Shown here piece by piece: positions 2,977 through 45,620 of a stretch of 64,000 nt of DNA. A model generated the notes under the pieces. It ran no database searches and had not been told where the DNA came from. It worked only from the letters and a program-made list of their open reading frames with translations. The position numbers were made by a program, and so were the translations under genes. The stretch lies in the NCBI GenBank assembly GCA_019326865.1, contig GCA_019326865.1_4101.1; one strand, 5' to 3'. Numbering within the stretch: the stretch's first letter is position 1; each line of letters starts with the position of its first letter. Source of the stretch: a phage.

Positions 2977-3291
2977 ATGAAAAACTTATTCAGTGTTCAG
3001 TACGTTCCAGGTGAAATTAGTTTATTGTATCTCTTTGACCATGATAATTCATTATTACTAGTAGTAAAGAAATGTCAAGCTAGTTCGTTTGTTGAATACA
3101 TTCACGATAATGAATATATACCTGATTTTTTAGAGTGCGATTATTACGATGATCATGAATCATTTATTTTTCAGGAATCGCTAGTATGGGACAAATCGAT
3201 TAACTTCTTTACGTTAATTGAATTACAAAAGCAAGTGAAGTATCATTGGGATTATTTAATTACACAGGATTACATTGAGATAGAAATATAA
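2977..3291 (+). CDS. hypothetical protein, FamA-like
   Basis: ATG after GAGG (track ORF began at TTG 2953); 'HESFIFQESLVWDK'. Confidence 0.55.
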   Translation: MKNLFSVQYVPGEISLLYLFDHDNSLLLVVKKCQASSFVEYIHDNEYIPDFLECDYYDDHESFIFQESLVWDKSINFFTLIELQKQVKYHWDYLITQDYIEIEI

Positions 3292-3599
3292 TGACTAAAA
3301 ATGAATTTGATTCACTTTGTACTGTTTATAATTCATTAACAGAAATACCTAACTTTATTAGTTATATTTCAGCTTTAAATCACATTATGCATAGTTTTGA
3401 ACAATCGTTTGAGGAGAAATATGCTGGAAGAAAAGTTCTATGTCATATGCCAATGTACTTAGGAGATGGTGAGCCTTACACTACAAGTACTACATGTGAA
3501 ATAAAAAAATATAATATATTATTGGGTACTATAGAATTCACAGTATCCAATGGCGGTAGTTATATGTACTTTAGAGATGGAGTGGTTGAATTATTATGA
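3291..3599 (+). CDS. hypothetical protein
   Basis: 102 aa ORF, stop-start overlap with neighbours, no recognised motif. Confidence 0.45.
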   Translation: MTKNEFDSLCTVYNSLTEIPNFISYISALNHIMHSFEQSFEEKYAGRKVLCHMPMYLGDGEPYTTSTTCEIKKYNILLGTIEFTVSNGGSYMYFRDGVVELL

Positions 3600-4045
3600 G
3601 TTACGAAAGTGCAATCAAGAAAGCAAATGATATTCTACGCGTCGTTCAATTCTTCAAAGAAAATCCTGAATACGTAGATGATAAAAACCAAGAGCACGAT
3701 GAGAGATTGAGACGAAAAATTATCTCTTTATTTGACACTAATAAAGATAATTGGAGTCTAATTGAGTTAGCATACGATTATATTTCATTGAACCGAAATG
3801 ATGATGTAGTTAAGATAGAAAGGCATGAATCAGAAGAATCTTTTAAAATTTCAGATATTTTATCCCTGAGTACTGAAGAAGGGTACTTCCAGGGTAGCAC
3901 TCTTTATAATGAAGAAACACTTGACAATCTATGCACATTCAGTGTAATATATCAGAAATCTGTACTAGATATATTTTATCTTGACACTGCTGAACTGCAT
4001 ACCCTAACCAATTTTGTTACTACCGAAGAGGCTACATTCGAGTGA
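3596..4045 (+). CDS. hypothetical protein, FamA
   Basis: 149 aa; 'MSYESAIKKAN', 'EEGYFQGSTLYNEETLD'. Confidence 0.65.
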   Translation: MSYESAIKKANDILRVVQFFKENPEYVDDKNQEHDERLRRKIISLFDTNKDNWSLIELAYDYISLNRNDDVVKIERHESEESFKISDILSLSTEEGYFQGSTLYNEETLDNLCTFSVIYQKSVLDIFYLDTAELHTLTNFVTTEEATFE

Positions 4046-6091: not shown

Positions 6092-6454
6092 ATGAACACA
6101 TTAAGTATTACATACTATACAACTAAAAAATTAGTTACTTGTTTAATATCATTGAAGTCAAAAAATGATGATATGTTTGATATGGCTGCATATGAATTAG
6201 AATTATCAGAAGATGGTTTCAAGATCTATGAAGTATATAGCTATGTTCGTGAAGATGTAATTGACACTACACTAATGCAAGAGGATGAGTTATTCCAAGA
6301 AAGTTTAGTATGGGATAATAAGTACGATTGTAACTTTGATTTCTTATGTTTAATCCAAAAAGAAATGAAAAGAATCTTTGATAATTATCCAATCAAACGT
6401 TTCAGTACTGCACCTGAGCAATATAAAAGGATTATATTCACCTATGAAGATTGA
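6092..6454 (+). CDS. hypothetical protein, FamA
   Basis: 120 aa; 'QEDELFQESLVWDNKYDCNFD'. Confidence 0.6.
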   Translation: MNTLSITYYTTKKLVTCLISLKSKNDDMFDMAAYELELSEDGFKIYEVYSYVREDVIDTTLMQEDELFQESLVWDNKYDCNFDFLCLIQKEMKRIFDNYPIKRFSTAPEQYKRIIFTYED

Positions 6455-7744: not shown

Positions 7745-8221
7745 ATGTCAAACGAACTCACATTCACCAATGCACAAAAGATAGCAAAAGACATTATCAG
7801 GGTTTATAAATTCCTTGCGAATGTTACTGAAGATTTTTTAATTGATAAAAATAAAGTTATTAAGCGAAATGGATACCTTTCCTTTATGGATGGGTTGCTC
7901 TATAGTTCAGATGAGTCAGCTTGTAGTATTAGAGTACTTGATACTGTACCAAGTGGTGATTTTATTTCATACCATTTTCCAAGTTCAGATAAGTTCAAAT
8001 ACTACAATAGTATTCTCATAGCAGAAGACTTTGATACGATTGTAATTAACACTGAAGAAGAGTTCTTCCAGTACAGTACTGTGTACCCAGAGAGGATTGT
8101 TTTCAGTTCAGTGATTTACACTACCCTTAAAAATGAACTAAATTCCGATAGTGATCATTTCTACTTGGACCTGAATAATATCGATTGTATTATTGAGTAC
8201 ATGGAGAAAAATGGTTTATGA
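7745..8221 (+). CDS. hypothetical protein, FamA
   Basis: 158 aa; 'EEEFFQYSTVYPE...HFYLDL'; sigma70-like promoter at 7682-7711. Confidence 0.7.
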   Translation: MSNELTFTNAQKIAKDIIRVYKFLANVTEDFLIDKNKVIKRNGYLSFMDGLLYSSDESACSIRVLDTVPSGDFISYHFPSSDKFKYYNSILIAEDFDTIVINTEEEFFQYSTVYPERIVFSSVIYTTLKNELNSDSDHFYLDLNNIDCIIEYMEKNGL

Positions 8222-8721
8222 TTACTACAGAATATGATTACAATAGTGTCCTTGAATTTGCAGAAAATATATATCGTATTGCAAAGGAGTTCAGAAGTCC
8301 TGAGCCGTTTGGTGGTATGTTCGAATACGATGAGTTTAGTTCATCAAAAGGAAGACTTGCATTTACTAATGGTAGAGGTAATCAAATCTACACAGAGTAC
8401 TTTGATGACAATGACTTTCATCACAAAGCCGAATACATTTCATATTGCCCTGGGTCTGATTTGAAGATTCATATTGAAAGAGATATAGAAAATGTATTTG
8501 TTCCATATACTGATTTAGTCTTCATGTCAGAGGAAATGTACTTTCAGGAATCATTGATTCATGATACAAAAGTACTTAATACTATATTATTATATGGTAC
8601 ACTACTTAATCATTACAAATACAATCAAAGATTCTTTTTAGATTTAGTAGTATACCATCAATGTGTGGATTATTTGAATGCAAAATCAGACAACAATTCA
8701 GTACATGACCGATGGTTCTGA
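8218..8721 (+). CDS. hypothetical protein, FamA
   Basis: 167 aa; 'SEEMYFQESLIHD...RFFLDL'; ATGA overlap. Confidence 0.65.
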   Translation: MITTEYDYNSVLEFAENIYRIAKEFRSPEPFGGMFEYDEFSSSKGRLAFTNGRGNQIYTEYFDDNDFHHKAEYISYCPGSDLKIHIERDIENVFVPYTDLVFMSEEMYFQESLIHDTKVLNTILLYGTLLNHYKYNQRFFLDLVVYHQCVDYLNAKSDNNSVHDRWF

Positions 8722-9040: not shown

Positions 9041-9437
9041 AATTATGCAACGCTGTCTTATTGACAAATACGGGATATATGGATATCGTTTAAGTGCTCC
9101 TATTGACAAAAATAAAACAACCTATGTAAGTTATAATGCTGTACAAGGGTTTGATATATTCATTAGTACTAATTATCAAATCAAACAAGCTAAAGATGTG
9201 TCTATAATGACCCCTGATGAGTTATTTCAGTACAGCTTAGTTCTTCCTACATGTATCGATTTACAACGTCTAGGAGCGATACAGAAGGTTTTACGCGAAC
9301 ATAAAGTACAACCCAATAAAGTCACGCACATTCCAGAAACAATCTTCAAAACTATAGAAGTAGAAACCCCTGATTATATGTTAAGTGATGATGAATTCTA
9401 CGAGAAGCACTTCCCTGGTAAAGTTTGGAGAGACTAA
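9024..9437 (+). CDS. hypothetical protein, FamA
   Basis: 137 aa; GAGG RBS; 'TPDELFQYSLVLP'. Confidence 0.55.
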   Translation: MLEMIKIMQRCLIDKYGIYGYRLSAPIDKNKTTYVSYNAVQGFDIFISTNYQIKQAKDVSIMTPDELFQYSLVLPTCIDLQRLGAIQKVLREHKVQPNKVTHIPETIFKTIEVETPDYMLSDDEFYEKHFPGKVWRD

Positions 9438-9919
9438 TGAACCGAAAGTACAGAGAAACTATGAAGTTCGCTAAGGAGTGTTTAGAGACATTTGATTTCA
9501 TTTTCGATAACAAAGACTCACTTGGTCATTACTTCGTAATTACAAAAAAAGAAGATGAGAGATACAAGTGTCAAAGATTAGGATACAGTATTGAGTTATC
9601 CTTAATGAGTGATGGTATGATAAACTCCATATATGAATCTGGTAAGACAGATTACATTTCATTTAGATCATGGAGTGATAATATAATGTTCTTGAGTCCT
9701 AATGGAAGTAAATATCCATTCATTAATGATTTATCAGAAGAAAGTTACTTTCAAAACAGTTTAATTTATACAGAAAAAGAACTCAAAATGTTATTCATAA
9801 TGTCGTACTTTAAAAAGTACTGTAAATTTAAATCATTATCTTTTGAGATTTCTGCGATGAAAGTATTCATTAAAAATGTAAAAGAATTAAAGAGGGCTTT
9901 TAATGTACATAGAAAATGA
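9437..9919 (+). CDS. hypothetical protein, FamA
   Basis: ATG 9437 (TAATG overlap); 'SEESYFQNSLIYTEKELKMLFIMSYFK'. Confidence 0.65.
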   Translation: MNRKYRETMKFAKECLETFDFIFDNKDSLGHYFVITKKEDERYKCQRLGYSIELSLMSDGMINSIYESGKTDYISFRSWSDNIMFLSPNGSKYPFINDLSEESYFQNSLIYTEKELKMLFIMSYFKKYCKFKSLSFEISAMKVFIKNVKELKRAFNVHRK

Positions 9920-10445: not shown

Positions 10446-11005
10446 ATGGCCATGATTACCAATTCCATAGACTAGAATTTAGACACTGTGTTGCATATGC
10501 AAAAACATTAATGTGCATCATTGACACTCTTTCATCCGAACAATTTCGTAAGGATAATGATTTATTGCTGAAAAAAGGTCGTATAACATCATCCGATATC
10601 GGTATTGAACTATTTGTTGAAATCAGTGTTGATACCGGAGACAGTACAAGGGCTGGTTGTATAGGTCATATTGGCACACATTGTTTCACATGGAATCCAA
10701 ATACAAGTCAAGTTAGAATTGATTATAGAAATTCACGTTGGGTTGATCTTAGTACTGAATCAGATTTAGAATCAGTTATGTTCCAGCTAAGTTTAATTCA
10801 CGATCCTAATGAACTTCTTTATATTATTACTTTCAGTTATCTGTTACAAAACTACGATAGTCCATCAGGGTTTTTCATAGAATCAGATATAGATGAAATT
10901 ATGGAAGAGATTCCTAGTTTAAAGAATATTCTGGAAGAAAAAGATTTCTATAAGGACTTCAGAGATTTATACGACATGCACTTGGAGTTATTTAAGAATG
11001 GATAA
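10442..11005 (+). CDS. hypothetical protein, FamA
   Basis: 187 aa; 'LESVMFQLSLIHDPNELLYIITFSY'. Confidence 0.6.
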   Translation: MNGHDYQFHRLEFRHCVAYAKTLMCIIDTLSSEQFRKDNDLLLKKGRITSSDIGIELFVEISVDTGDSTRAGCIGHIGTHCFTWNPNTSQVRIDYRNSRWVDLSTESDLESVMFQLSLIHDPNELLYIITFSYLLQNYDSPSGFFIESDIDEIMEEIPSLKNILEEKDFYKDFRDLYDMHLELFKNG

Positions 11006-11516
11006 AGATGATATTCTAATTAGACTAGTTCAGAGTTTGATAAAGTTCGCAAATAATGATATCAATACATACAAAGTAGGTGATATTGAATTCAAATCAT
11101 TTGGTATGTACGGTGATGACGAAACATATTATGCTTCAATGAAATTTCAAGAATTTCACGAGATGTTAATATCGTTATCATACGAAGATGTTGACCCAAG
11201 ATGGAGTTCCAGTATTTCACTATCGAGAATGGTAATTCGTAGTAAGCATCGTTACATTTCGTCAAAGAATACTCCTAACTTGATTAATATTGTGTTGAAT
11301 GAAAATACAAACCCCCTATCTAAATATGATATCGTACCTTTAACCGATGAAGCAATTTTTCAATTGAGTACCATTTGTGATGAAGATGTGATATCATGTA
11401 TGAAAATTTATGAGAAAGTTGGGGGTGATATTCCCATGAACTATTACCTAACTATAGATGAAACGTATCTCCAAGATGATGTTCTGGCGTACATTGACAG
11501 TGTTTTACCAAAATAA
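10998..11516 (+). CDS. hypothetical protein, FamA
   Basis: 172 aa; 'TDEAIFQLSTICDEDV'; followed by terminator. Confidence 0.6.
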   Translation: MDKDDILIRLVQSLIKFANNDINTYKVGDIEFKSFGMYGDDETYYASMKFQEFHEMLISLSYEDVDPRWSSSISLSRMVIRSKHRYISSKNTPNLINIVLNENTNPLSKYDIVPLTDEAIFQLSTICDEDVISCMKIYEKVGGDIPMNYYLTIDETYLQDDVLAYIDSVLPK

Positions 11517-11540
11517 AGACCCGTTATGGGTCTTTTTGTG
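11516..11540 (+). terminator. rho-independent terminator
   Basis: GACCC-GTTAT-GGGTC hairpin then TTTTTGTGTTT. Confidence 0.7.
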
Positions 11541-11548
11541 TTTATGGC

Positions 11549-11577
11549 TTTACAAGAGCATTCAGGTGTGTTATACT
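11549..11577 (+). promoter_or_regulatory. T4-early-like promoter (TTTACA-17-TGTTATACT)
   Basis: between terminator 11516-11540 and CDS 11593. Confidence 0.45.
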
Positions 11578-11592
11578 TGATTTCAAATAGAG

Positions 11593-12168
11593 TTGGAGGA
11601 ATCTATGAGTACTGAATTAATTAAAGAAGTTACCTTACTTCTGAAGCATTGTTTTAAGTTCATTCCTGATACTGGTTCACGCCAGTACATTAAAGTTAAT
11701 GAGAAATATAACATCAATATCCTTGTATCTGAAACTGCGAGCAGCTATGCTAACATTGAGTTGGATTCTGAAGAAAAATATACAGTATTACAAATCATAG
11801 CAGATGTACAACGTAAACAAGATTATCGTTCTTCATTTGACAACGATTATCTGTGTGTTTGCTCAAACTTCAGTGAGAATAAAATTGTGTATAAGAATTT
11901 ATACACACATGAAGTGATTGATACATATAATTATAAAATTTCATCTGATGAATACAATGTGCTAATGTTCAACGCAAACCTTTTGTATGATGCCAGTACT
12001 GTACGCTGTTTAGAGTTAGCATATAAAATTCCAAAGATCATGGAAAGAAAAGATTTGATTCACTTTAAAACTATTTTAAAATACAGTACAAAAGAATTAG
12101 AAGATTTAGTACAGGCTCTTAAGAATTTCATTAATGAACATGTACCTGTTAAATTAGAGGACTTATAA
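11593..12168 (+). CDS. hypothetical protein
   Basis: 191 aa; GGAGG RBS; promoter-like element upstream. Confidence 0.55.
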   Translation: MEESMSTELIKEVTLLLKHCFKFIPDTGSRQYIKVNEKYNINILVSETASSYANIELDSEEKYTVLQIIADVQRKQDYRSSFDNDYLCVCSNFSENKIVYKNLYTHEVIDTYNYKISSDEYNVLMFNANLLYDASTVRCLELAYKIPKIMERKDLIHFKTILKYSTKELEDLVQALKNFINEHVPVKLEDL

Positions 12169-25946: not shown

Positions 25947-26222
25947 ATGAATTATAAATTTCTACAATATACATACACAATATTATTTGATTTACATCAC
26001 AATGGACGATATATCAACACAATACGAGAAAACACATTTACTCATATGTTATGGATTGATTACTTAGAAACGATTCGTGCATATTTTGTTAATACTGAGA
26101 TAATCATTCGTGGTAAAAAACAGAAGATTCAACATGTTAATAGTTATGGTGGTAAATTAACTCTAACATTTACCGATAATAATACTAATGAAATGTGTTG
26201 TATCGAGTTGGTGAACATATGA
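25947..26222 (+). CDS. hypothetical small protein, FamB
   Basis: 91 aa; 'KFLQYTYTILFDL' N-term and 'GGKLTLTFTDNN' C-term. Confidence 0.55.
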   Translation: MNYKFLQYTYTILFDLHHNGRYINTIRENTFTHMLWIDYLETIRAYFVNTEIIIRGKKQKIQHVNSYGGKLTLTFTDNNTNEMCCIELVNI

Positions 26223-26485
26223 ATTATAAAGATTTCCAATTAACATATAAGATTATTCGCAATCTAGCACACAGCAATAATAGCCCTAGTCTAGAAGACA
26301 CATGCACAGAAATGATCCATACGATTCGTGCAAAGATTGAAGAAAATTTCAGTACTGTTATTATTAATGATGACCATGCAGAATTTTCTGATATAATCAT
26401 TAGACGTGATGGTAAAGTTGAGGTTCAGTACTACACTGATTTTGGATTTACAAGTGTACCGTTGGAGATATTCCCTTGGGATTAA
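26195..26485 (+). CDS. hypothetical small protein, FamB
   Basis: 96 aa; 'DFQLTYKIIRNL', 'DGKVEVQYYTD'. Confidence 0.55.
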   Translation: MLYRVGEHMNYKDFQLTYKIIRNLAHSNNSPSLEDTCTEMIHTIRAKIEENFSTVIINDDHAEFSDIIIRRDGKVEVQYYTDFGFTSVPLEIFPWD

Positions 26486-26787
26486 ATTTAAATGATATAC
26501 AATTCACTTATAAGGTACTATATGATTTGTATGATGCATACCTTGTTAGTAACAAAATAGGTTCACATAACCCAACCAAAGAACAATCATTTATTGATTT
26601 ATATATTGAGTACTTAGATTCTATTGAAAACTATCTCAAAAAGAATTACAGTACTTTTATCGATGGAAATGATACATTCGATTTCTATGGTGTGCAATCA
26701 TATGATGGTATAATCCATGTTCAATTTCAGGAAAGAACCGATAGGGAATTTATCGAAATTAAAGTTGTGAAGTTGGTGAATTTATAA
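26476..26787 (+). CDS. hypothetical small protein, FamB
   Basis: TTG start after GGAG; 'DIQFTYKVLYDL'. Confidence 0.5.
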   Translation: MGLNLNDIQFTYKVLYDLYDAYLVSNKIGSHNPTKEQSFIDLYIEYLDSIENYLKKNYSTFIDGNDTFDFYGVQSYDGIIHVQFQERTDREFIEIKVVKLVNL

Positions 26788-26797
26788 GAGGTTACAT

Positions 26798-27109
26798 ATG
26801 TTATTAAATGATATACAATTTACATACAAATTTTTGTATATCCAATTCGCAACGGTTGATGCTGGTGAATATATCTACAGTGAAGTTTATCGTTCGATAT
26901 GGATAAAGTTTTTAGATGAATTACATGAATATTACCATGATTTGCGTATAGTTCGTAATAATAAAATATACAAATTCCGCGATATTGTTAGTCATAGCGG
27001 TAAGCTACGATTGGAATTAAGTACTGATAGTGATGTTGATTGGATTGGTGTAAATTTACTGGAGTTGGAGAATGAAAAGCAACTTAAAGGAAATACAAGT
27101 ATTTTATAA
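26798..27109 (+). CDS. hypothetical small protein, FamB
   Basis: 103 aa; 'DIQFTYKFLY', 'SGKLRLELSTDSD'. Confidence 0.55.
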   Translation: MLLNDIQFTYKFLYIQFATVDAGEYIYSEVYRSIWIKFLDELHEYYHDLRIVRNNKIYKFRDIVSHSGKLRLELSTDSDVDWIGVNLLELENEKQLKGNTSIL

Positions 27110-27356
27110 ATTCTTATACTTGTCATATGTTAAAGATGAGTACTATGAAAGTGTGTATTATTTTTTATGGCAACATTACCGTACTATAGTAAGAGATTTA
27201 TATCTAGGAAAATCTATCATATACAATGGTGAAAAATGTACATGTACGGATGTAGTTAGTTTTAATGGTTCTTTAACACTGTGTTTCAGATGCGATAATA
27301 ATAGTGGGTCATTTTCATTAAACGTATATCAGTTAGAAGGAATAAATTTTGAATAA
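27072..27356 (+). CDS. hypothetical small protein, FamB
   Basis: 94 aa; GGAG RBS; 'EIQVFYKFLYL', 'NGSLTLCFRCDNN'. Confidence 0.5.
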   Translation: MKSNLKEIQVFYKFLYLSYVKDEYYESVYYFLWQHYRTIVRDLYLGKSIIYNGEKCTCTDVVSFNGSLTLCFRCDNNSGSFSLNVYQLEGINFE

Positions 27357-33737: not shown

Positions 33738-34670
33738 ATGCCAACTATCACCTTAACAATTGGGTTGCCTGGGTGTGGTAAAACTACATGGGCAGTGCAA
33801 GAGATTAAAAACGCCAAATCTAAGACTATCAACATCAACCGTGATGATATTCGTGAATCTATGGCGGGGTCACATGATGCTTACAAATTCAACGATGCTA
33901 ATGAGCAGTACGTAACTACTTTACAGTTCAGTGCAGCAAATTTAGCAGCAGAGAATGGTTGGAACATCATCATATCCGATACGAACCTTAAACAACATTT
34001 CCGTGATCTCTGGAAAGTATGGGCTAAAGATAATGATTATGATTACAAAGAAAAGAACTTCTATGATGATTTTGTACCTAATGAAGACCGTGGTGCAGAT
34101 GTTCATGAATTCTTTAAGATTAAAGAGTTCGTAAAACTTTGTAAGAAATATAACCGCCAGCGTGAGCGTTCAGTACAAGATAATATCATTGACACTATGG
34201 CAGATACTTACTATTATAGTAAAGCAATGCACATTGGTTACTATGGTAATTCAAGAGAAGCCGCTGTTATCGTTGATATTGACGGAACTCTTGCTCATAA
34301 ATGGGGTCGTAATCCTTACGATGAAAGTACTGTACTACAAGATACACCAGATGAAGAAGTTATTTTGTCTATTATCGCTGAAGCAGTTTTCCATAAACGT
34401 AAGATTATTGTAATGAGTGGGCGTACTGAAGGGTGTCGTGCAGACACAGAACAGTGGCTTAAGAATTGGGGTGTTCCTTACGATGCATTGTTTATGCGAG
34501 GCATCGATGATAAACGACCCGATGATGTGGTAAAATATGAGTTGTATATGAATAACGTCGTGCATCATTACGATGTTAAAAAAGTATACGATGACAGATC
34601 ACAAGTCGTATTCATGTGGCGTAAACTACTTGGATTAAAAGTGATGCAAGTTGCAGAAGGAAATTTCTGA
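33738..34670 (+). CDS. pseT: polynucleotide 5'-kinase/3'-phosphatase (T4 Pnk/PseT-like)
   Basis: 310 aa; Walker A 'GLPGCGKTT'; HAD motif 'VIVDIDGTLA'; terminator downstream. Confidence 0.9.
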   Translation: MPTITLTIGLPGCGKTTWAVQEIKNAKSKTININRDDIRESMAGSHDAYKFNDANEQYVTTLQFSAANLAAENGWNIIISDTNLKQHFRDLWKVWAKDNDYDYKEKNFYDDFVPNEDRGADVHEFFKIKEFVKLCKKYNRQRERSVQDNIIDTMADTYYYSKAMHIGYYGNSREAAVIVDIDGTLAHKWGRNPYDESTVLQDTPDEEVILSIIAEAVFHKRKIIVMSGRTEGCRADTEQWLKNWGVPYDALFMRGIDDKRPDDVVKYELYMNNVVHHYDVKKVYDDRSQVVFMWRKLLGLKVMQVAEGNF

Positions 34671-34677
34671 CACAAAA

Positions 34678-34705
34678 GGGATCAATGTATGATCCCTTTT
34701 TCTTT
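34678..34705 (+). terminator. rho-independent terminator
   Basis: GGGATC-AATGTAT-GATCCC then TTTTTCTTTT; follows pseT. Confidence 0.7.
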
Positions 34706-34895: not shown

Positions 34896-35153
34896 ATGGA
34901 TAAATTTCACACAGATATAACACAGATAGGTAATCTTATCAATAGTCTAATTACTGATTTAGAAGAAAAGTACTTAGGTCGAAATGTATACGTTGAAATG
35001 TATGAAACATATGGTGTTATTGATATGATTTATTACAGTGCATTGAAGTGTGAAATACGTTTAACAGTATGTTTGTTTGAAAAAGATACATTCAACAGAA
35101 GTACTGCAATTCGTCAGGTTGGTGTAGATGACATTGAATTATATGAGGAATAA
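34896..35153 (+). CDS. hypothetical small protein, FamC
   Basis: 85 aa; 'EEKYLGRNVYVEMYE'. Confidence 0.5.
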   Translation: MDKFHTDITQIGNLINSLITDLEEKYLGRNVYVEMYETYGVIDMIYYSALKCEIRLTVCLFEKDTFNRSTAIRQVGVDDIELYEE

Positions 35154-37641: not shown

Positions 37642-37857
37642 ATGATAACATTTTTCGCAATATATGGATTTGTGGTATTTGTCACATTTATAACCAACTT
37701 TTTAGTACTTAATTGGGGTTGTTTTAAAGATGAAATCATGATTGCCATGAATCTCCAAACAGCCGCACTAATGGCTATTATTTGGCCTGTAACGTTAGTA
37801 TACCTTTTTATTTCACTTACTCAAGATATTATTAACAAATATAAGAGAAAGAACTAA
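37642..37857 (+). CDS. small membrane protein
   Basis: 71 aa, two hydrophobic helices. Confidence 0.45.
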   Translation: MITFFAIYGFVVFVTFITNFLVLNWGCFKDEIMIAMNLQTAALMAIIWPVTLVYLFISLTQDIINKYKRKN

Positions 37858-38114
37858 TGTTCAAAACCGACTTATCACATTTTCGATATCTTAGGTCTTT
37901 GGCTGATGATTTTATAAATGATCTTAAGCCAAAATATATTGGTCAAGAAGTACGATTAATAAACTCCAGAGGGTATGGAAAGTATATTATATCGGATATG
38001 TATATTAGTGCAGGTGAGTGGCGTTTTAAAATTAACACTTATCTTAAAGATGGTTCTTTTGCTGGAACACAAGTTACTAAACATACTAATATTATATGGT
38101 TGGAGCAACAATGA
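37857..38114 (+). CDS. hypothetical small protein, FamC
   Basis: 85 aa; 'KPKYIGQEVRLIN'. Confidence 0.5.
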   Translation: MFKTDLSHFRYLRSLADDFINDLKPKYIGQEVRLINSRGYGKYIISDMYISAGEWRFKINTYLKDGSFAGTQVTKHTNIIWLEQQ

Positions 38115-38854
38115 AACACTTTTTAGAAGTAACCGTGCCTGATGATAAAGATTTATATATTGTAGGTGATTTGCATGGTAATGGTAAACTATGGGATGCT
38201 ACAGTAAAAGAATTTGGTATTACACACAATGATTATGTTTTCAGTGTAGGTGATGTTATCGACCGTGGAGAACAAAATTCAAAGCTCCTATTTGAATTTT
38301 TGTTCGGAGAAAATCGTTACATGATTGCTGGAAATCATGAGATGATGTGTGTTGATTCAGAAACACTTCGAGATTGGTATCATTGTTGGATAAGTAATGG
38401 CGGTGATAAATTCCTTGATGAAGTTGGGGGAACAGGCATTCAATTCTTTCGTCAGTACTTGAAAGATTTACCTATGATTATCCAAATCAACCATAGAGGC
38501 TTGAAGATCGGGTTAGTTCATGCTGGAGTTCCTTTGGAATATACAACATGGGAACGATTTGTTAATGGGACAAAATCACTTAGTGCTGATATAGTTGATA
38601 AGTGCTTGTGGGATAGGAAAACATTCGATTATTGTAGAACAAATAATACCTATTATGCACCTAAGTTAGATGGTGTGCATTGTGTCTTTAGTGGACATAC
38701 TGCCGTTACTGATCCACTCATTTATGGTAATCGCATTTGGATTGATAGTCAGTTCTTGACGGGTGACTTAACTCTCGCTACTCCACAAAGTGGTGGGATG
38801 AGATACTTACGTAAAGAAAAAGATGAGTACTCATTCAGTCGTTTCAAAAGGTAA
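38111..38854 (+). CDS. PPP-family Ser/Thr protein phosphatase-like metallophosphoesterase
   Basis: 'GDLHGN', 'GDVIDRG', 'GNHE' signature; ATG 38111 after GGAG. Confidence 0.8.
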   Translation: MKHFLEVTVPDDKDLYIVGDLHGNGKLWDATVKEFGITHNDYVFSVGDVIDRGEQNSKLLFEFLFGENRYMIAGNHEMMCVDSETLRDWYHCWISNGGDKFLDEVGGTGIQFFRQYLKDLPMIIQINHRGLKIGLVHAGVPLEYTTWERFVNGTKSLSADIVDKCLWDRKTFDYCRTNNTYYAPKLDGVHCVFSGHTAVTDPLIYGNRIWIDSQFLTGDLTLATPQSGGMRYLRKEKDEYSFSRFKR

Positions 38855-38859
38855 TAATT

Positions 38860-39129
38860 ATGCATGATGTAGTTAAAAAATATTTGAATGATAGATATAT
38901 CATGGAAAAATCTATTAATTCTATCCTAAAAGATCATGATAATCAAATACGTGAGATTCTATCAAATAAACTTATTGGTTGTTCAGTTGAGTTCAACTAC
39001 AAAAAGAATGTAGTGAAGATTGGAGTTATTAAACGTGTAGTTGCTGTTTATGTCCAAAATGTATATGTTGAAATTGAATATGATGGTAAATTATCACAAT
39101 TAAGTACTGAAGATTTAACATTTTTATAA
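38860..39129 (+). CDS. hypothetical small protein, FamC
   Basis: 89 aa; 'NKLIGCSVEFNYKK'. Confidence 0.5.
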   Translation: MHDVVKKYLNDRYIMEKSINSILKDHDNQIREILSNKLIGCSVEFNYKKNVVKIGVIKRVVAVYVQNVYVEIEYDGKLSQLSTEDLTFL

Positions 39130-39139
39130 GGAAATAGAA

Positions 39140-39367
39140 ATGAAAGTAATTCAAGTTATGGTAGAAAAATACCAAACTGAAGATGGTCGTATTTTTGATT
39201 CAGCTAAACAAGCTGAACATCATGAACGTATTATTTCGGGTACACGTAAAGTGTGTCCTACATGTAATGGAACACAACAAGTGCCGTCAGAAGATTACCG
39301 CAGCTTTTATGCTTGTCCATACTGTGATGGGAAAGGCTATGTAGAAAAACAAGAGGTATGGAAATGA
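39140..39367 (+). CDS. small zinc-finger protein (DnaJ-type CxxCxGxG repeats)
   Basis: 'CPTCNGTQ' and 'CPYCDGKG'. Confidence 0.5.
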   Translation: MKVIQVMVEKYQTEDGRIFDSAKQAEHHERIISGTRKVCPTCNGTQQVPSEDYRSFYACPYCDGKGYVEKQEVWK

Positions 39368-39777
39368 AATTGTATTGCTTAACTAATATGTACTGTCAAG
39401 GTGTCCAAGCTGGTATTCAAGCATTTCATGCTGGTGTTAAACTAATCAAAGAATATGAAGGTACTGCTTTCAGTACTATGATTGATGAATGGTATAATGA
39501 GCACGAAACTATTGTAGTACTAAATGCGGGTGGACATGATAAATTAAATTCTTATTATAAAGACCTTAACAAACAGGGAACAGTTCCGTTTGCCAAATTC
39601 AATGAAGCTGGATTGAATGATGCTATTACATGTATCGCAGTACTGTGTACATCTGAAATGATTGAAGACATGGCTGTTATGCGTATGAATCTTCCTGCTG
39701 GTGATCAGCTAATGCAAGTGAAATATGGTGCATTGTTTGACACACTTAAAGCAATCAGTACGATGAGGACAATTTGA
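39358..39777 (+). CDS. hypothetical protein
   Basis: 139 aa ORF. Confidence 0.5.
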   Translation: MEMKLYCLTNMYCQGVQAGIQAFHAGVKLIKEYEGTAFSTMIDEWYNEHETIVVLNAGGHDKLNSYYKDLNKQGTVPFAKFNEAGLNDAITCIAVLCTSEMIEDMAVMRMNLPAGDQLMQVKYGALFDTLKAISTMRTI

Positions 39778-40976
39778 TGGATTTTCCAGAGAAGTTATTT
39801 GTTGCACGTTCCTATGTAAACCACAACCAAGTTGATGGTTTTATCATTGATGCAACCAAATCACACACAAAAGCATTTGAGACAAAGAAAGAAAGAGCAG
39901 AGTATTGGGCAAAGAAGAACAATCTTCCATCGTTGTTTATTGACAACGTTCCAACCACTGGATTTTGTGTAGTTGATAAATTAACAATTCATGCACGAGA
40001 AACATATTTCACAATCCGTCACCCAGAAGGATTTGAATTTATGATTAGTGCAAAAAACATGAATGATTTAATTATCAATAATGATATCATTAAAGGTGTT
40101 TTTGTAGACCCAATGTTTTTTAACAATAACTTAGAATTGATTAATGGTAAAACAAAAACATTTGCTAAGTTAGTTGAAAAACAAAATAAAAAAGAACAAC
40201 AAAAAGAAACTGTGGCAAGTCTTAAAGTTGGTGATGGTTTCACTTATCTTAAAGAAGATTACTATTACTGCGGTAAAGTACATGCAATTTGTATCAAGAA
40301 AACTAAAGAATTTGCATATCCAGATAAAAGTTCAATATATCATTTAGTTTTTAATAGTACTCGTGGAACTTATGCATTGAATCAACGTTTGGATAATTAC
40401 AATCTGGAACCTCGTGCACTCTTGAATAAGAAGACTACGACAGATGAAGAAATTAAACTTGCTAATGAATTTTGGCAAAGCTATAGAACAAACAGACATA
40501 ACCCATTAGGTGAATCTAACATTCCAGTACTGGTACACAATAAATCATTTAAAGCAAAAGACCTAAAAATTAAATACGAAGAAATAAATGTTGATGACCT
40601 TATGAATAATGGACGTTTTAACGAGAACGTACCATTCATGACTAAAGATAATGAACAATCTTATCGCGTATTTTTTGGTGTAAGTAATAATACAACGCGT
40701 AGTTATTATGGACGTAACGGGGATTATACTATTCATTATATTGATAAATTTGAACGCTTTAGTGCATACCCAGTTCAAATTGATGATAATGGAATTATGT
40801 CAATGGATGTTGATATTAATGAGCACACATCATTTAGTACATGGAATGGTTATCGTTCTCCATTCTTTCCACCAAATGAACGCAAAACATCAAGTACTCG
40901 TTACTATCAGGATAAACCATGTCACGTCCAATTATCAATTAGCAATCCACTTTTTATTGGAAAGTATTATCTATAA
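39777..40976 (+). CDS. hypothetical protein
   Basis: 399 aa; ATG 39777 overlapping upstream TGA. Confidence 0.6.
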   Translation: MDFPEKLFVARSYVNHNQVDGFIIDATKSHTKAFETKKERAEYWAKKNNLPSLFIDNVPTTGFCVVDKLTIHARETYFTIRHPEGFEFMISAKNMNDLIINNDIIKGVFVDPMFFNNNLELINGKTKTFAKLVEKQNKKEQQKETVASLKVGDGFTYLKEDYYYCGKVHAICIKKTKEFAYPDKSSIYHLVFNSTRGTYALNQRLDNYNLEPRALLNKKTTTDEEIKLANEFWQSYRTNRHNPLGESNIPVLVHNKSFKAKDLKIKYEEINVDDLMNNGRFNENVPFMTKDNEQSYRVFFGVSNNTTRSYYGRNGDYTIHYIDKFERFSAYPVQIDDNGIMSMDVDINEHTSFSTWNGYRSPFFPPNERKTSSTRYYQDKPCHVQLSISNPLFIGKYYL

Positions 40977-40987
40977 AGGAATATACA

Positions 40988-42406
40988 ATGAGCATTTTAG
41001 CAATTCTTGAAAGCATTAAAAATACTAGCAGTACTCTGGGTAAAAAAGCTATCCTTGAACAAAACAAAGATAACCAAACATTACAAAAAGTACTGAAATA
41101 TACACTAGATCCTTCAATTGTAAGTGGGTATAAAAAGCTACCACAAGCTGATGATGTATACCAACATATGACATTAGATGAAGCAATTGATAAGCTAGAA
41201 TGCATTTACAAACGTGGTGTAACCGGAAATGCTGGACGTGACTTCATTGCTTCAGTACTGGGTTCTGTATCTGAAGATGATCAGGAAGTTCTACGAAGAA
41301 TGCTCACTAAGAACCTTGATTGTGGTATTCAAGAAAAGAACTGCAATGATGTGTTCGGGAAAGGTTTTATCAAAGACGAACCATACATGCGTTGTTCTTT
41401 GATTGACAAAAAGACTGCAAAGAACATTAACTTCAAAGATTATGGTTATGCTATATCAGAAGTGAAAATGGATGGTCAGTACTTGAACCACGTTGTCATT
41501 AATGGTTCATTAACTTCTACATCCCGTAATGGTAAACTATACGACTTCCTGGGTTGTCGTGATGGTGAGATGGCAGGTCTTGCTCACATCATCCAAAGTA
41601 AAGATGAACGTTTTAGTAGTGGTGTAGTCTTTATGGGTGAAGGTGTAGTACTGGACAATGATGGAGAAACCATTCTCCCACGCACTACTGGCAATGGTAT
41701 AATTCAGAAAGCTGGAAAAGATAGTATCAGTCAGAATGAAGCAATGCGTACTGTATTTGTTCTATGGGATGTTGTTCCATATGATGCATTTTGTGAAGGT
41801 GTATGGGATGTAAAACGTAAAGAACGTCGCGAGATCTTAGTAGATGCAATTAACGAACTCAGTAGTGATTTTGTTCGTATGGTTGGATTCCGTAAAGTTC
41901 TAAACATCAAAGAAGCATTTGAGTACAATAGTGAACTAATGAACGAAGGTGAAGAGGGTTCAGTACTGAAATGTGAAGATGGTATCTGGAAATCTCACAC
42001 TTCTCCTAAGCAATTGAAAATGAAACTCAAAATGCAACTGGACTTGCGTATTGTTGGTTTCAATGAAGGTGAAGGTAAGCGTAAAGGTAGCCTTGGTTCT
42101 TTACAACTGGAAAGTGCGTGTGGTACATTGAAAGTTAATGTAGGTACAGGTATCCGTGAAAAAGATGCCGAATGGACATTTAAAACTATCTGGGAAAGAA
42201 TGCAAGAACTTATTGGTAAAGTGGTTACAGTTGAGTGTAATGACATTGTATTCGATAAGCGTACTGGTGAACCATCACTATTTTTACCTGTATTTATTGA
42301 ATTTAGATTTGACAAAAACACTTGCGACGATTATACTCGTATCTTAGAAATTCGTGATAGTGCAGTTGAAGTGTTTTCAAACAGTATTATTGAAGCATTA
42401 GGTTAA
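40988..42406 (+). CDS. lig: ATP-dependent DNA ligase (T4 gp30-like)
   Basis: 472 aa; KxDG adenylation motif 'EVKMDGQY'; N-term 'GKKAILEQNKDNQTLQKV' parallels T4 ligase. Confidence 0.9.
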   Translation: MSILAILESIKNTSSTLGKKAILEQNKDNQTLQKVLKYTLDPSIVSGYKKLPQADDVYQHMTLDEAIDKLECIYKRGVTGNAGRDFIASVLGSVSEDDQEVLRRMLTKNLDCGIQEKNCNDVFGKGFIKDEPYMRCSLIDKKTAKNINFKDYGYAISEVKMDGQYLNHVVINGSLTSTSRNGKLYDFLGCRDGEMAGLAHIIQSKDERFSSGVVFMGEGVVLDNDGETILPRTTGNGIIQKAGKDSISQNEAMRTVFVLWDVVPYDAFCEGVWDVKRKERREILVDAINELSSDFVRMVGFRKVLNIKEAFEYNSELMNEGEEGSVLKCEDGIWKSHTSPKQLKMKLKMQLDLRIVGFNEGEGKRKGSLGSLQLESACGTLKVNVGTGIREKDAEWTFKTIWERMQELIGKVVTVECNDIVFDKRTGEPSLFLPVFIEFRFDKNTCDDYTRILEIRDSAVEVFSNSIIEALG

Positions 42407-42425
42407 CCATTTATTGGAGGTAATT

Positions 42426-43217
42426 ATGAAATTTGTCGTAACATCTGATGTACACGGTAGCACTGATTACCTTCATAGTGGGGATTACAGCGATACAGTA
42501 CTGTTCATTGCTGGAGACTTCGATGAAGTTAAACGCAGTCGTTACCGTACTGGTATCGAATCACTATGTAAGCAGTTCAAAAATGTAGTGCTGGTTCCTG
42601 GCAATCACGAATACTATGGTTCTAATATCCACAAAACGCATAAAGTTCTGTCTGACATGCAAGATGAGATTCCCAATTTCATCTTTTTGCAAAACAAATT
42701 TGTATGGCTGGATGGGGTACTTCTTGTTGGTAGTACTCTGTGGACAGACTTCGATAAAGGTAACTCTTTGACTAAGTTTGATGCTCGTCAGAAGATGAAT
42801 GATTATAAACATATCCGTCATGGAACAACATCCGAGCCTTGGCGTAAGAAGTTGACACCAGATGATACGGAGTTCATGCATTATAAAGATAAACAATTTA
42901 TTAAAAATTCTATTGACACGGCTCGCTTTATGCATGATAATGATTTCAAGGTAATTGTGATTACACATCACGCACCAAGTTATCAAAGTGTTTCACCAAA
43001 ATATAAAAATGATTCCCTGAATGGCTGTTACTGTTCAGATATGGATCAGTACATTGAAGATTTGGGTGCTGATATTTGGATTCATGGTCATGTTCATAGT
43101 AGCTTTGACTACCACATTGGTAAGACACGTATCATTTGTAATCCACGAGGCTATGAATCGTACAGTGGTGCTTGTGAAAATTTTGATTACAATCCTAAAT
43201 TAGTATTTGAAATTTAA
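42426..43217 (+). CDS. calcineurin-like metallophosphoesterase
   Basis: 'SDVHGS', 'GDFDE', 'GNHEYYG' motifs; ATG after GGAGG. Confidence 0.75.
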   Translation: MKFVVTSDVHGSTDYLHSGDYSDTVLFIAGDFDEVKRSRYRTGIESLCKQFKNVVLVPGNHEYYGSNIHKTHKVLSDMQDEIPNFIFLQNKFVWLDGVLLVGSTLWTDFDKGNSLTKFDARQKMNDYKHIRHGTTSEPWRKKLTPDDTEFMHYKDKQFIKNSIDTARFMHDNDFKVIVITHHAPSYQSVSPKYKNDSLNGCYCSDMDQYIEDLGADIWIHGHVHSSFDYHIGKTRIICNPRGYESYSGACENFDYNPKLVFEI

Positions 43218-44834: not shown

Positions 44835-45131
44835 ATGACAAAAACTTTAGTTCGTAATAATTCAGCACAAGAGGCTGATGTTCTTGAAGATTCAGAATTC
44901 ATCACTGTTGCACTGGAACAAATTAGTACTCAAGCATTGGCACTAAAAGATACTACACAGTCAGAAGACCTACTGGTTGGGATGGCTAATATCCTTGAAC
45001 TAATGCAGGAAGTTCTAGTAAAGAACAATATTACACCAATTGATGCAGTACAATATGCTGCAAATCTACGAGCAGAATTCGGTTCATTCTGTGATAAGAA
45101 ATATATCAGCACTGAAGAGGAAAAAGAATAA
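44835..45131 (+). CDS. hypothetical protein
   Basis: 98 aa; AGGAG RBS. Confidence 0.5.
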   Translation: MTKTLVRNNSAQEADVLEDSEFITVALEQISTQALALKDTTQSEDLLVGMANILELMQEVLVKNNITPIDAVQYAANLRAEFGSFCDKKYISTEEEKE

Positions 45132-45132
45132 T

Positions 45133-45579
45133 ATGTCTAATGCACAATACAAAGAAGGTTCTGCCGCGTTTAAAAACAAAGTAGTTTTTAACAATGAACA
45201 GCTAAAATCACAGCACCCACTATTCCGTCAAGGTTATCGTGCTGCACAAGCTGAAGCAATGAAGAAAAGTAATGTGACATTCCCAACTACATTATATGAT
45301 ATTCCTAAACGTCCACATATTTTTAAAGCAGAATGGACTGATATTATGGCAGCGACAAAGCGACCTCGTTTTGCTAAACTTCATACTGATCAAGGACGTT
45401 GGCTACTAATTGGTATTATGAAAGCAGTAGAAAATCAATCACATAAGATTTCCCGATATAAAGATGTTATTGCTATGGTCGATAAAGCATTTGATCTTGT
45501 TCTGCAATATGGTTATGACGAAGGTGTTCTAACTGTTGCTGATTGTGAGCAATATCAGTACACTCCATATCAAAAATGA
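45133..45579 (+). CDS. hypothetical protein
   Basis: ATG 45133 preferred over overlapping 45040; terminator downstream. Confidence 0.5.
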   Translation: MSNAQYKEGSAAFKNKVVFNNEQLKSQHPLFRQGYRAAQAEAMKKSNVTFPTTLYDIPKRPHIFKAEWTDIMAATKRPRFAKLHTDQGRWLLIGIMKAVENQSHKISRYKDVIAMVDKAFDLVLQYGYDEGVLTVADCEQYQYTPYQK

Positions 45580-45587
45580 TATAAAAA

Positions 45588-45620
45588 ATAGGAATCCCAC
45601 ACAAGGATTCCTATTTTTAT
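45588..45620 (+). terminator. rho-independent terminator
   Basis: ATAGGAATCC-CACACAA-GGATTCCTAT then TTTTT. Confidence 0.8.

Follow-up and report, generated by a model that had tools for sequence, protein, structure and literature searches.

The window analysed here is a stretch of 64,000 nucleotides (nt) of phage DNA (contig GCA_019326865.1_4101.1 of the NCBI GenBank assembly GCA_019326865.1), and this work deals with two of its genes, which encode metallophosphoesterases and lie on the two sides of a gene for an ATP-dependent DNA ligase. The open reading frame (ORF) 38111-38854 is termed MPE1 and the ORF 42426-43217 is termed MPE2. A sequence-only reading of the window had reported that two different metallophosphoesterases bracket the ligase; both ORFs were recovered at exactly these positions, and the ligase gene is the last of the five genes that lie between them. 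From 5' to 3' the locus is composed as follows:

38111-38854, + strand: MPE1, a stand-alone, lambda-phosphatase (NinI)-like binuclear metallophosphatase of 247 amino acids (aa); PF00149 at 2.7e-11, phrog_246 at 2.4e-66.
38860-39129, + strand: ORF of 89 aa; phrog_38615, no Pfam match.
39140-39367, + strand: CxxC zinc-ribbon protein of 75 aa, DnaJ central-domain/anti-TRAP-like below the Pfam cut-offs; phrog_12574.
39358-39777, + strand: PTH2-like hydrolase of 139 aa; Pfam PTH2 at 3.9e-6 (27.5 bits against a cut-off of 23), phrog_3668 'hydrolase' at 1.4e-45.
39777-40976, + strand: conserved protein of 399 aa; phrog_14061 at 1.4e-197.
40988-42406, + strand: T4 gp30-type ATP-dependent DNA ligase of 472 aa; Pfam DNA_ligase_A_M at 5e-14, phrog_114 at 8.3e-119, PDB 6dt1 at 1.9e-44.
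42426-43217, + strand: MPE2, a single-domain calcineurin-like phosphoesterase of 263 aa; PF00149 at 1.4e-12, phrog_1649 at 4.5e-72.

MPE1 and MPE2 are both intact and maintained by selection, and their binuclear metal sites are complete, i.e., none of the metal-binding and catalytic residues of their class is missing. The start codon of MPE1 overlaps with the stop codon of the upstream ORF (ATGA) and has a GGAG 5 nt upstream, and the ATG of MPE2 is preceded at the same distance by GGAGG. Both proteins score well above the gathering cut-off of 21.5 bits for the Metallophos family PF00149 (MPE1: 44.7 bits; MPE2: 48.8 bits), and a six-frame regular-expression scan of the whole window found the pattern DxH...GD...GNH[ED] in these two ORFs only. 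The motifs GDxHG and GNHE, the loss of which was to be looked for by alignment, turned out to be conserved. In comparison to the jumbo coliphage PBECO4, the ratio of nonsynonymous to synonymous substitution rates (dN/dS) amounts to 0.028 for MPE1, 0.041 for MPE2 and 0.042 for the ligase, which marks both as functional genes under strong purifying selection with a constraint as strong as that on the ligase. It also held up that the two enzymes are of different kind: a profile-profile comparison yielded a probability of 50.6% over 62 columns, which cover motifs I-III only, and MPE1 and MPE2 are related only at the level of the superfamily and are not recent paralogues.

The origin of the DNA can be narrowed down by its relatives. 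A 5.9-kb query around the MPE1-ligase-MPE2 region matched 38 phage records, in which both genes are annotated; the best match is Escherichia phage UE-S1 with 98.4% identity, followed by PBECO4, 121Q, G17, Sharanji and other Asteriusvirus jumbo phages of 320-380 kb with an identity of approximately 93-95%. By these matches the window represents an Asteriusvirus genome, i.e., a jumbo coliphage of the PBECO4/121Q type. Its G+C content is approximately 31-35%, the ORFs examined are nearly all located on one strand, and no tRNA genes were found in the 64 kb. In PBECO4, MPE1 is annotated as gp114, "NinI-like serine-threonine phosphatase", and MPE2 as gp108, "metallo-phosphoesterase"; in UE-S1 they are UES1_406 and UES1_413, and the same start codons are annotated in both phages. 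For dozens of PBECO4/121Q-like phages, GenBank already contains these genes with their class and their order, and the observation as such restates existing annotation.

The assignment of MPE1 to the PPP family and to the lambda-phosphatase type was borne out by the motifs GDxHG, GDxxDRG and GNHE and by the His, His, Arg and Asp residues further towards the C-terminus, all of which MPE1 (247 aa) has within one domain, as expected for a family with domains of approximately 220-250 aa. When the PDB was searched with the single sequence, lambda phosphatase (lambda-PP, 1G5B) was matched at 3.7e-16, with residues 12-234 of the 252-aa ORF against its residues 7-220, and ApaH and PP1 appeared at approximately 7e-3 only. 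The AlphaFold2 model of MPE1 has a mean predicted local distance difference test (pLDDT) score of 93.4 and resembles 1G5B best (E 4.6e-15; template modelling (TM) score of 0.75 by query and 0.84 by target), followed by the phosphatase domain of Clostridium thermocellum Pnkp (CthPnkp; 4j6o, 2.4e-8), the ApaH-like 2qjc and then the eukaryotic PP1, PP2A and PP5. When MPE1 is aligned with lambda NinI, further phage homologues and relatives from bacteria, its residues D20, H22, D48, R52, N75, H76, H137, H196 and D212 are invariant, nine positions that correspond to active-site residues of lambda-PP, and W167-x-R169 is nearly so; the elements GDLHG, GDVIDRG, GNHE, H137, R169, H196 and D212 align with D20, H22, D49, R53, N75, H76, H139, R162, H186 and D202 of lambda-PP.

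The boundaries of this assignment are given by the neighbouring families. Membership in the ApaH family, which had been proposed as a comparison, was not borne out: MPE1 reaches 31.6 bits against the NCBIfam cut-off of 176 (NF001204), and the alignment covers residues 20-151 only, i.e., the N-terminal half. MPE1 is also not of the CthPnkp type, as it is a single-domain protein of 247 aa and the kinase (Pnkp, 33738-34670) and the ligases are encoded by separate genes. A profile search delineated a close subfamily of approximately 47 clusters with bit scores of 200-470, in which every member with a named source stems from a jumbo phage; beyond this subfamily the identity drops to approximately 30%, with other phages and bacterial proteins named "serine/threonine protein phosphatase 1". 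As lambda-PP is the best match by sequence and by fold, the equivalog cut-offs are not reached and all source-named members of the close clusters come from jumbo phages, MPE1 is placed as a phage-lineage subfamily of the lambda-PP/PrpA branch, which is stand-alone and neither an ApaH nor a Pnkp-type fusion.

The family of MPE2 is very large, is distributed across viruses and cells and carries the motif set of class-III phosphodiesterases. Its residues 4-267 match positions 35-306 of the 308 positions of phrog_1649, 'metallo-phosphoesterase', and thus the full length of this family. A word-seeded search resulted in 683 homologues, a homologue is carried by 195 phage records, and an exhaustive profile search identified 8,632 clusters at 50% identity with E <= 1e-30; the best 150 clusters listed have a length of 239-305 aa and nearly all of them are matched over most of the profile. 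Moreover, a contig scan with a 10-sequence alignment detected relatives of MPE2 at 529 or more loci on bacterial chromosomes. The classification as calcineurin-like phosphoesterase was confirmed by an alignment of 46 homologues with 35-84% identity to MPE2, in which D8, H10, G30-D31, G59-N60-H61-E62, H181 and G221-H222-x-H224 are invariant. The class-III signature D-Xn-GD-Xn-GNH[E/D]-Xn-H-Xn-GHXH is thereby present in D8, H10, GD31, GNHE59-62, H181/H182 and GH222-V-H224, which are invariant or nearly so. Residues Y64, T104, W106, D126, P184, S188, Y229, P240, G242 and Y243 are likewise invariant and form a putatively family-specific set, which in a wider listing also comprises L105, T107, S185 and N239.

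The structure prediction of MPE2 shows a single domain (AlphaFold2, pLDDT 96.1). Among solved structures the best folds are Mycobacterium tuberculosis PptH (6unc; E 2.8e-9, TM 0.65, 17-20% identity) and rat MPPED2 (TM 0.58); further folds are TT1561, Dbr1, GpdQ, Rv0805 and Mre11/SbcD with TM scores of 0.45-0.54. Against predicted viral structures (BFVD), metallophosphatases of giant viruses and phages were found at TM scores of 0.75-0.86 and 20-30% identity. The relatives from giant eukaryotic viruses comprise proteins of Terrestrivirus, Pandoravirus, Port-miou virus, Pithovirus, Marseillevirus and Clandestinovirus, and this family is thus common to large DNA viruses of bacteria and eukaryotes. 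Among the proteins found by sequence, profile and fold searches no close relative of MPE2 is functionally characterised; no NCBIfam family matched MPE2 at E < 0.01, and the single-sequence search of the PDB gave one marginal match.

For PptH it was shown that it is a diesterase, which hydrolyses bis-p-nitrophenyl phosphate but not p-nitrophenyl phosphate (PMC8557913). The class-III motif set (D-x-H, GD, GNHE, HH, GHxH) and the nearest folds PptH and MPPED2, which like GpdQ and Rv0805 are diesterases, support that MPE2 would act as a phosphodiesterase on a nucleotide-type or another small phosphodiester. A different kind of diester as substrate was considered as well. It was reported that Gp48 of mycobacteriophage A10ZJ24, an early-expressed metallophosphoesterase, is a diesterase, disrupts the host genomic DNA and plays a role in counter-defence (PMC12287305). 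MPE2 might likewise be a nuclease on host DNA, similar to this Gp48 or to Mre11/SbcD, which feeds nucleotide recycling and silences host genes; Mre11, SbcD and Dbr1 are among its fold matches, and bacterial homologues adjoin UvrD in Pandoraea and RecQ in Nostoc. This is very unlikely: the TM scores with Mre11/SbcD, a comparison proposed by the sequence-only reading, are 0.45-0.50 and thereby lower than those with the diesterases PptH and MPPED2, MPE2 is a single domain of 263 aa in contrast to these nucleases, which are proteins of 300-400 aa with a nuclease and a capping domain and with Rad50/SbcC as partner, no SbcC-like gene is adjacent, and among 80 bacterial loci only two genera have the helicase neighbours. 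Kinship with the metallophosphoesterases of cluster-A mycobacteriophages was rejected upon comparison with Bxb1 gp47, a homologue of A10ZJ24 Gp48 (hhalign probability of 0.6% for MPE1 and 0.3% for MPE2).

The motifs also bear on the possibility that MPE1 and/or MPE2 degrade Ap4A/Np4N caps, cyclic mono-, di- or oligonucleotides or alarmones and thereby blunt an abortive-infection or stress response. The proposed comparison of MPE2 with cyclic-nucleotide phosphodiesterases stood as far as the class-III motif set is concerned, which is found together with folds of the MPPED2, Rv0805 and GpdQ type; for an assignment to one of these families the picture is mixed, with a fold likeness of TM 0.47-0.59 and no NCBIfam match at E < 0.01. 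For MPE1, ApaH and ApaH-like enzymes are the next relatives after lambda-PP (NF001204 at 1e-7; by profile 2qjc at 1.2e-20 and 9t9n at 3.3e-19), but its low score and the restriction to the N-terminal half speak against such a function. The wider neighbourhood in related phages is consistent with counter-defence: PBECO4 encodes a Sir2 and a Nudix protein approximately 7 kb downstream of MPE2, and Pectobacterium phage CBB carries genes for an enzyme of the nicotinamide mononucleotide adenylyltransferase (NMNAT) type and a nicotinamide phosphoribosyltransferase within 7 kb downstream. These neighbours hint at other nucleotide- and nicotinamide adenine dinucleotide (NAD)-related functions nearby. 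However, relatives of MPE2 are present in giant eukaryotic viruses and as conserved chromosomal genes in bacteria, which argues against a substrate specific for bacterial immunity. The sole PADLOC match, to the candidate system PDC-S10, is partial and N-terminal (residues 1-111 of MPE2 against positions 10-115 of 223, 3.5e-11), which does not make MPE2 a member, and the same partial match is seen in bacterial homologues of MPE2. As a whole, a counter-defence function of this kind is quite unlikely.

The position of the two genes around the ligase was analysed by the conservation of the gene order. In Serratia phage BF (Eneladusvirus) and in Pectobacterium phage CBB (Mimasvirus) the order is NinI-like phosphatase, PTH2-like protein, protein of approximately 400 aa, ligase, (small ORF), MPE2, (small ORF), ClpP-like protease, further genes and deoxycytidine monophosphate (dCMP) deaminase, and MPE2 of BF and CBB is approximately 52-55% identical to that of the window. 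In the window the gene for the ClpP-like protease lies approximately 0.9 kb downstream of MPE2. As this order is common to Asteriusvirus, Eneladusvirus and Mimasvirus, it is old within the jumbo-phage clade. In UE-S1 the spacer between ligase and MPE2, which has a length of 19 nt in the window (42407-42425), is interrupted by an additional gene of 1071 nt encoding 356 aa (UE-S1 10622-11692), which matches phrog_681 'endonuclease', has three CapR-homology domains and is absent from the window and from PBECO4. This insert is probably a mobile endonuclease gene, and its presence shows that a tight coupling of ligase and MPE2 is not required.

Outside the Asteriusvirus clade, the context of MPE2 homologues was sampled in 15 phage records of about ten lineages and in 80 bacterial loci with flanks of up to 5 kb. 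In Caulobacter phage CcrColossus and Brevundimonas phage Gurke the homologue is located inside a tRNA array near a peptide deformylase, in Myxococcus phage Mx1 inside a tRNA array, in an Acinetobacter phage between rIIA and rIIB and in XacN1 next to a cysteine (papain-like) protease; besides the positions near ligase genes in nt-1, F86 and Cr30 given below, further homologues lie among genes without annotation. As an observation in its own right, at least two independent lineages have genes of the MPE2 family inside or beside phage tRNA arrays (CcrColossus, Gurke, Mx1, S-CRM01). The neighbours seen in bacteria are specific to the respective lineage. UvrD and cytochrome c are found in 13 Pandoraea genomes, RecQ and ParE in five to six loci of Nostoc and close relatives, and cytochrome c is a recurrent neighbour in Burkholderiales. 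In seven Rhizobiales loci and in one further locus (L048), the MPE2 homologue is directly preceded by a gene for an FtsH-like protein (AAA plus Peptidase_M41), which is on the same strand and separated by approximately 100 bp; this arrangement suggests that both form a two-gene unit in these bacteria; another locus (L094) has an FtsH-like gene 1.6 kb downstream on the opposite strand.

Several candidate partnerships were rejected in this sampling. A partnership with helicases is limited to UvrD in Pandoraea and RecQ in Nostoc, i.e., to two genera (tblastn, 80 loci); the phylogenetically most diverse cluster of neighbours, ten loci from several phyla, arises spuriously from the ubiquitous ABC ATPase domain, and another cluster consists of antisense shadow ORFs in high-GC DNA. 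A dedicated module of ligase and metallophosphoesterase was dismissed as well, since adjacency to the ligase is confined to the jumbo-phage clade; in Vibrio schizoT4 phages and in Cr30 the genes are close to each other in a looser way. The tie to the ligase implied by the sequence-only reading is therefore weak: given the clade-limited synteny, the insert in UE-S1 and the varied neighbours of MPE2 elsewhere, the flanking of the ligase is an inherited gene order of this clade and not a dedicated ligase-phosphoesterase system, and no observation ties either enzyme specifically to the ligase. Homologues of MPE2 may nevertheless show a loose recurrent proximity to enzymes of nucleic acids.

Further features define the surroundings of the locus:

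33738-34670, + strand: T4-type Pnkp with its own 3'-phosphatase domain; HAD_PNKP at 3.5e-44.
34674-34700, + strand: terminator-like hairpin after the Pnkp gene, found by hairpin scan; UE-S1 annotates a terminator at the matching place.
45584-45618, - strand in the scan: terminator-like hairpin just past the ORF 45040-45579; a plus-strand terminator is annotated at the matching place of UE-S1.

The run of co-directional genes that contains MPE1 and MPE2 starts after the hairpin 34674-34700. As the hairpin scan detected no strong plus-strand terminator-like hairpin between 34700 and approximately 45600, the two genes may share long transcripts with about 25 other genes. Within this run the ligase also matches the N-terminal domain of T4 DNA ligase (PDB 5wfy) at 7.8e-14. 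The 399-aa protein (39777-40976), the gene of which immediately precedes the ligase gene in each of the three jumbo-phage genera examined, has a dN/dS of 0.07 against PBECO4 and showed no significant match to Pfam (DUF6080 below the cut-off only), to NCBIfam or, by sequence, to the PDB. In the phages BF and CBB the PTH2-like gene directly follows the gene for the NinI-like phosphatase, and in the window two small ORFs lie between MPE1 and the PTH2-like gene. Together with the upstream genes for the Rnl1-type RNA ligase and Pnkp, the PTH2-like gene suggests a theme of tRNA maintenance.

The window contains several groups of small paralogues. Upstream of MPE1, ORFs of approximately 85-100 aa (34896-35153, 37857-38114 and 3291-3599, + strand) show a weak mutual similarity (phmmer E of approximately 3e-4 to 6e-4) and may be a diverged small paralogue family that fills the space between Pnkp and MPE1. 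A tandem array of five paralogous ORFs of approximately 150 aa lies at 669-2975 on the + strand (pairwise phmmer E 1e-15 to 1e-53), and more distant copies are found at 3596-4045, 7745-8221, 8218-8721 and 9437-9919. Two further small paralogue families are located at 28-303, 300-659 and 6092-6454, and at 25947-27356.

The presence of an Rnl1-type RNA ligase and a T4-type Pnkp 4-7 kb upstream directs attention to the healing of nucleic acid ends. MPE1 and/or MPE2 might remove a 3'-phosphate, a 2',3'-cyclic phosphate or other blocks so that the DNA ligase or the upstream Rnl1 can seal the ends, comparable to CthPnkp. The phosphatase domain of CthPnkp matches MPE1 second best by fold and over the full length by profile (1.4e-16), phrog_8238 'RNA ligase' matches MPE1 at 9.9e-7, homologues of MPE2 are found near RNA ligase or gp30 genes in other phages, and the gene order is conserved in three genera. 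Yet a complete T4-type Pnkp, including a 3'-phosphatase domain, is already available to the phage, MPE1 fits lambda-PP far better than CthPnkp (4.6e-15 vs. 2.4e-8), most of the sampled contexts of MPE2 lack a ligase, with a homologue of the window ligase in 0 of the 80 bacterial loci within the flanks, and UE-S1 tolerates a 1-kb gene between ligase and MPE2. Taken together, a function in end healing is unlikely.

A more speculative proposal, to which only a slight chance is given, combines the contexts of MPE2 with its fold: enzymes of the MPE2 family might cleave off a group that is attached to a macromolecule by a phosphodiester, either from a protein side chain, as PptH does on the holo-acyl carrier protein, or from the 3' end of tRNA or RNA, and not act on a free nucleotide. 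It builds on the modest fold likeness to PptH and on the homologues in tRNA arrays (CcrColossus, Gurke, Mx1) and next to an RNA ligase (Cr30). It further draws on three types of proteases beside MPE2 homologues, i.e., ClpP-like in the window, papain-like in XacN1 and FtsH-like in Rhizobiales. If this was true, MPE2 would be part of a repair and detoxification neighbourhood with Rnl1, Pnkp, the PTH2-like protein, the DNA ligase, MPE1 and the ClpP-like protease.

The explanation that we favour is that MPE1 and MPE2 would be independent, catalytically competent enzymes of a conserved co-directional block, which also comprises the genes for the ligase, the ClpP-like protease and the dCMP deaminase. 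MPE1 would be a Mn2+-dependent phosphomonoesterase similar to lambda phosphatase, PrpA and PrpB that acts mainly on phosphorylated proteins, and it might plausibly reverse the phosphorylation of host Ser, Thr, Tyr or His residues, thereby erasing host signals during the takeover of the cell. MPE2 would be the phosphodiesterase described above. For the joint assignment, i.e., MPE1 as phosphomonoesterase on phosphoproteins and MPE2 as phosphodiesterase in a gene order inherited within the clade, the chances are about even; the confidence is moderate because the substrates of metallophosphoesterases are notoriously hard to predict from sequence.

Several observations weigh against this explanation. 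Lambda-PP-type enzymes are promiscuous, and both lambda-PP and the phosphatase domain of CthPnkp, the second-best fold match of MPE1, hydrolyse 2',3'-cyclic phosphates. The proposed profile comparison with PrpA and PrpB did not result in membership, as MPE1 stays far below the NCBIfam equivalog cut-offs (PrpA, NF008516: 63.5 vs. 326 bits; PrpB, NF007425: 53.9 vs. 332 bits). The likeness of MPE2 to PptH and MPPED2 is modest (TM 0.58-0.65, 16-20% identity), and the family profile of MPE2 reaches PptH at 4.2e-8 over residues 5-71 only, i.e., motifs I-III. Moreover, the MPE2 homologue is located 2.4 kb upstream of the gp30 ligase in the Vibrio phages nt-1 and F86, and in Caulobacter phage Cr30 an RNA ligase gene lies 0.2 kb away from it. 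Finally, literature searches gave nothing specific, either on experiments that establish what the two families do in jumbo phages or on phage phosphatases as counter-defence.

The finding itself is of little weight, as genes, classes and order are already annotated. To our knowledge, the lambda-phosphatase family has no established role in phage biology. The value lies in the pointer to the MPE2 family, which is very large, occurs in viruses and cells and is without a characterised close relative; functions assigned in a tractable jumbo coliphage would transfer to thousands of homologues.

The comparison with known systems puts both enzymes into context. A10ZJ24 Gp48 and Bxb1 gp47 are phage-encoded metallophosphoesterases like MPE1 and MPE2, without a specific similarity to either of them. 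MPE1 resembles lambda-PP (NinI, 1G5B) in the nearly full-length alignment, in the single-domain architecture, in all active-site residues and in the fold (TM 0.84); it differs by an identity of only approximately 22-26%, by approximately 17 residues that are inserted behind the H137 motif and by a basic extension of approximately 13 residues at the C-terminus. ApaH and ApaH-like phosphatases belong to the same bacterial PPP branch and can be aligned in motifs I-III and the N-terminal half. MPE1, however, is approximately 30-40 residues shorter than ApaH, and the alignment with ApaH stops at approximately residue 150, whereas MPE1 aligns with lambda-PP from end to end. The phosphatase domain of CthPnkp (4J6O) is itself lambda-PP-like, acts in RNA end healing and adjoins a ligase domain; it matches MPE1 by fold (E 2.4e-8, TM 0.66) and by profile over the full length (1.4e-16), and 4j6o gave no match at E < 0.01 in the single-sequence search. 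In contrast to the stand-alone MPE1, it is the middle part of a kinase-phosphatase-ligase polypeptide.

For MPE2, PptH (6UNC) is the best match among solved structures by fold and by profile, and both are single-domain proteins of approximately 260-310 aa. They differ by a root mean square deviation of more than 5 Å at an identity of 17-20%, and nothing suggests an acyl carrier protein as substrate of MPE2. MPPED2, Rv0805, GpdQ and CpdA/Icc have the motif set D-x-H, GD, GNHE, H and GHxH in common with MPE2 and similar folds (TM 0.47-0.59), and some database sources label homologues of MPE2 as 'Icc-related predicted phosphoesterase'. Compared to these class-III phosphodiesterases, MPE2 is without an NCBIfam match and may be set apart by the invariant residues of its own family.

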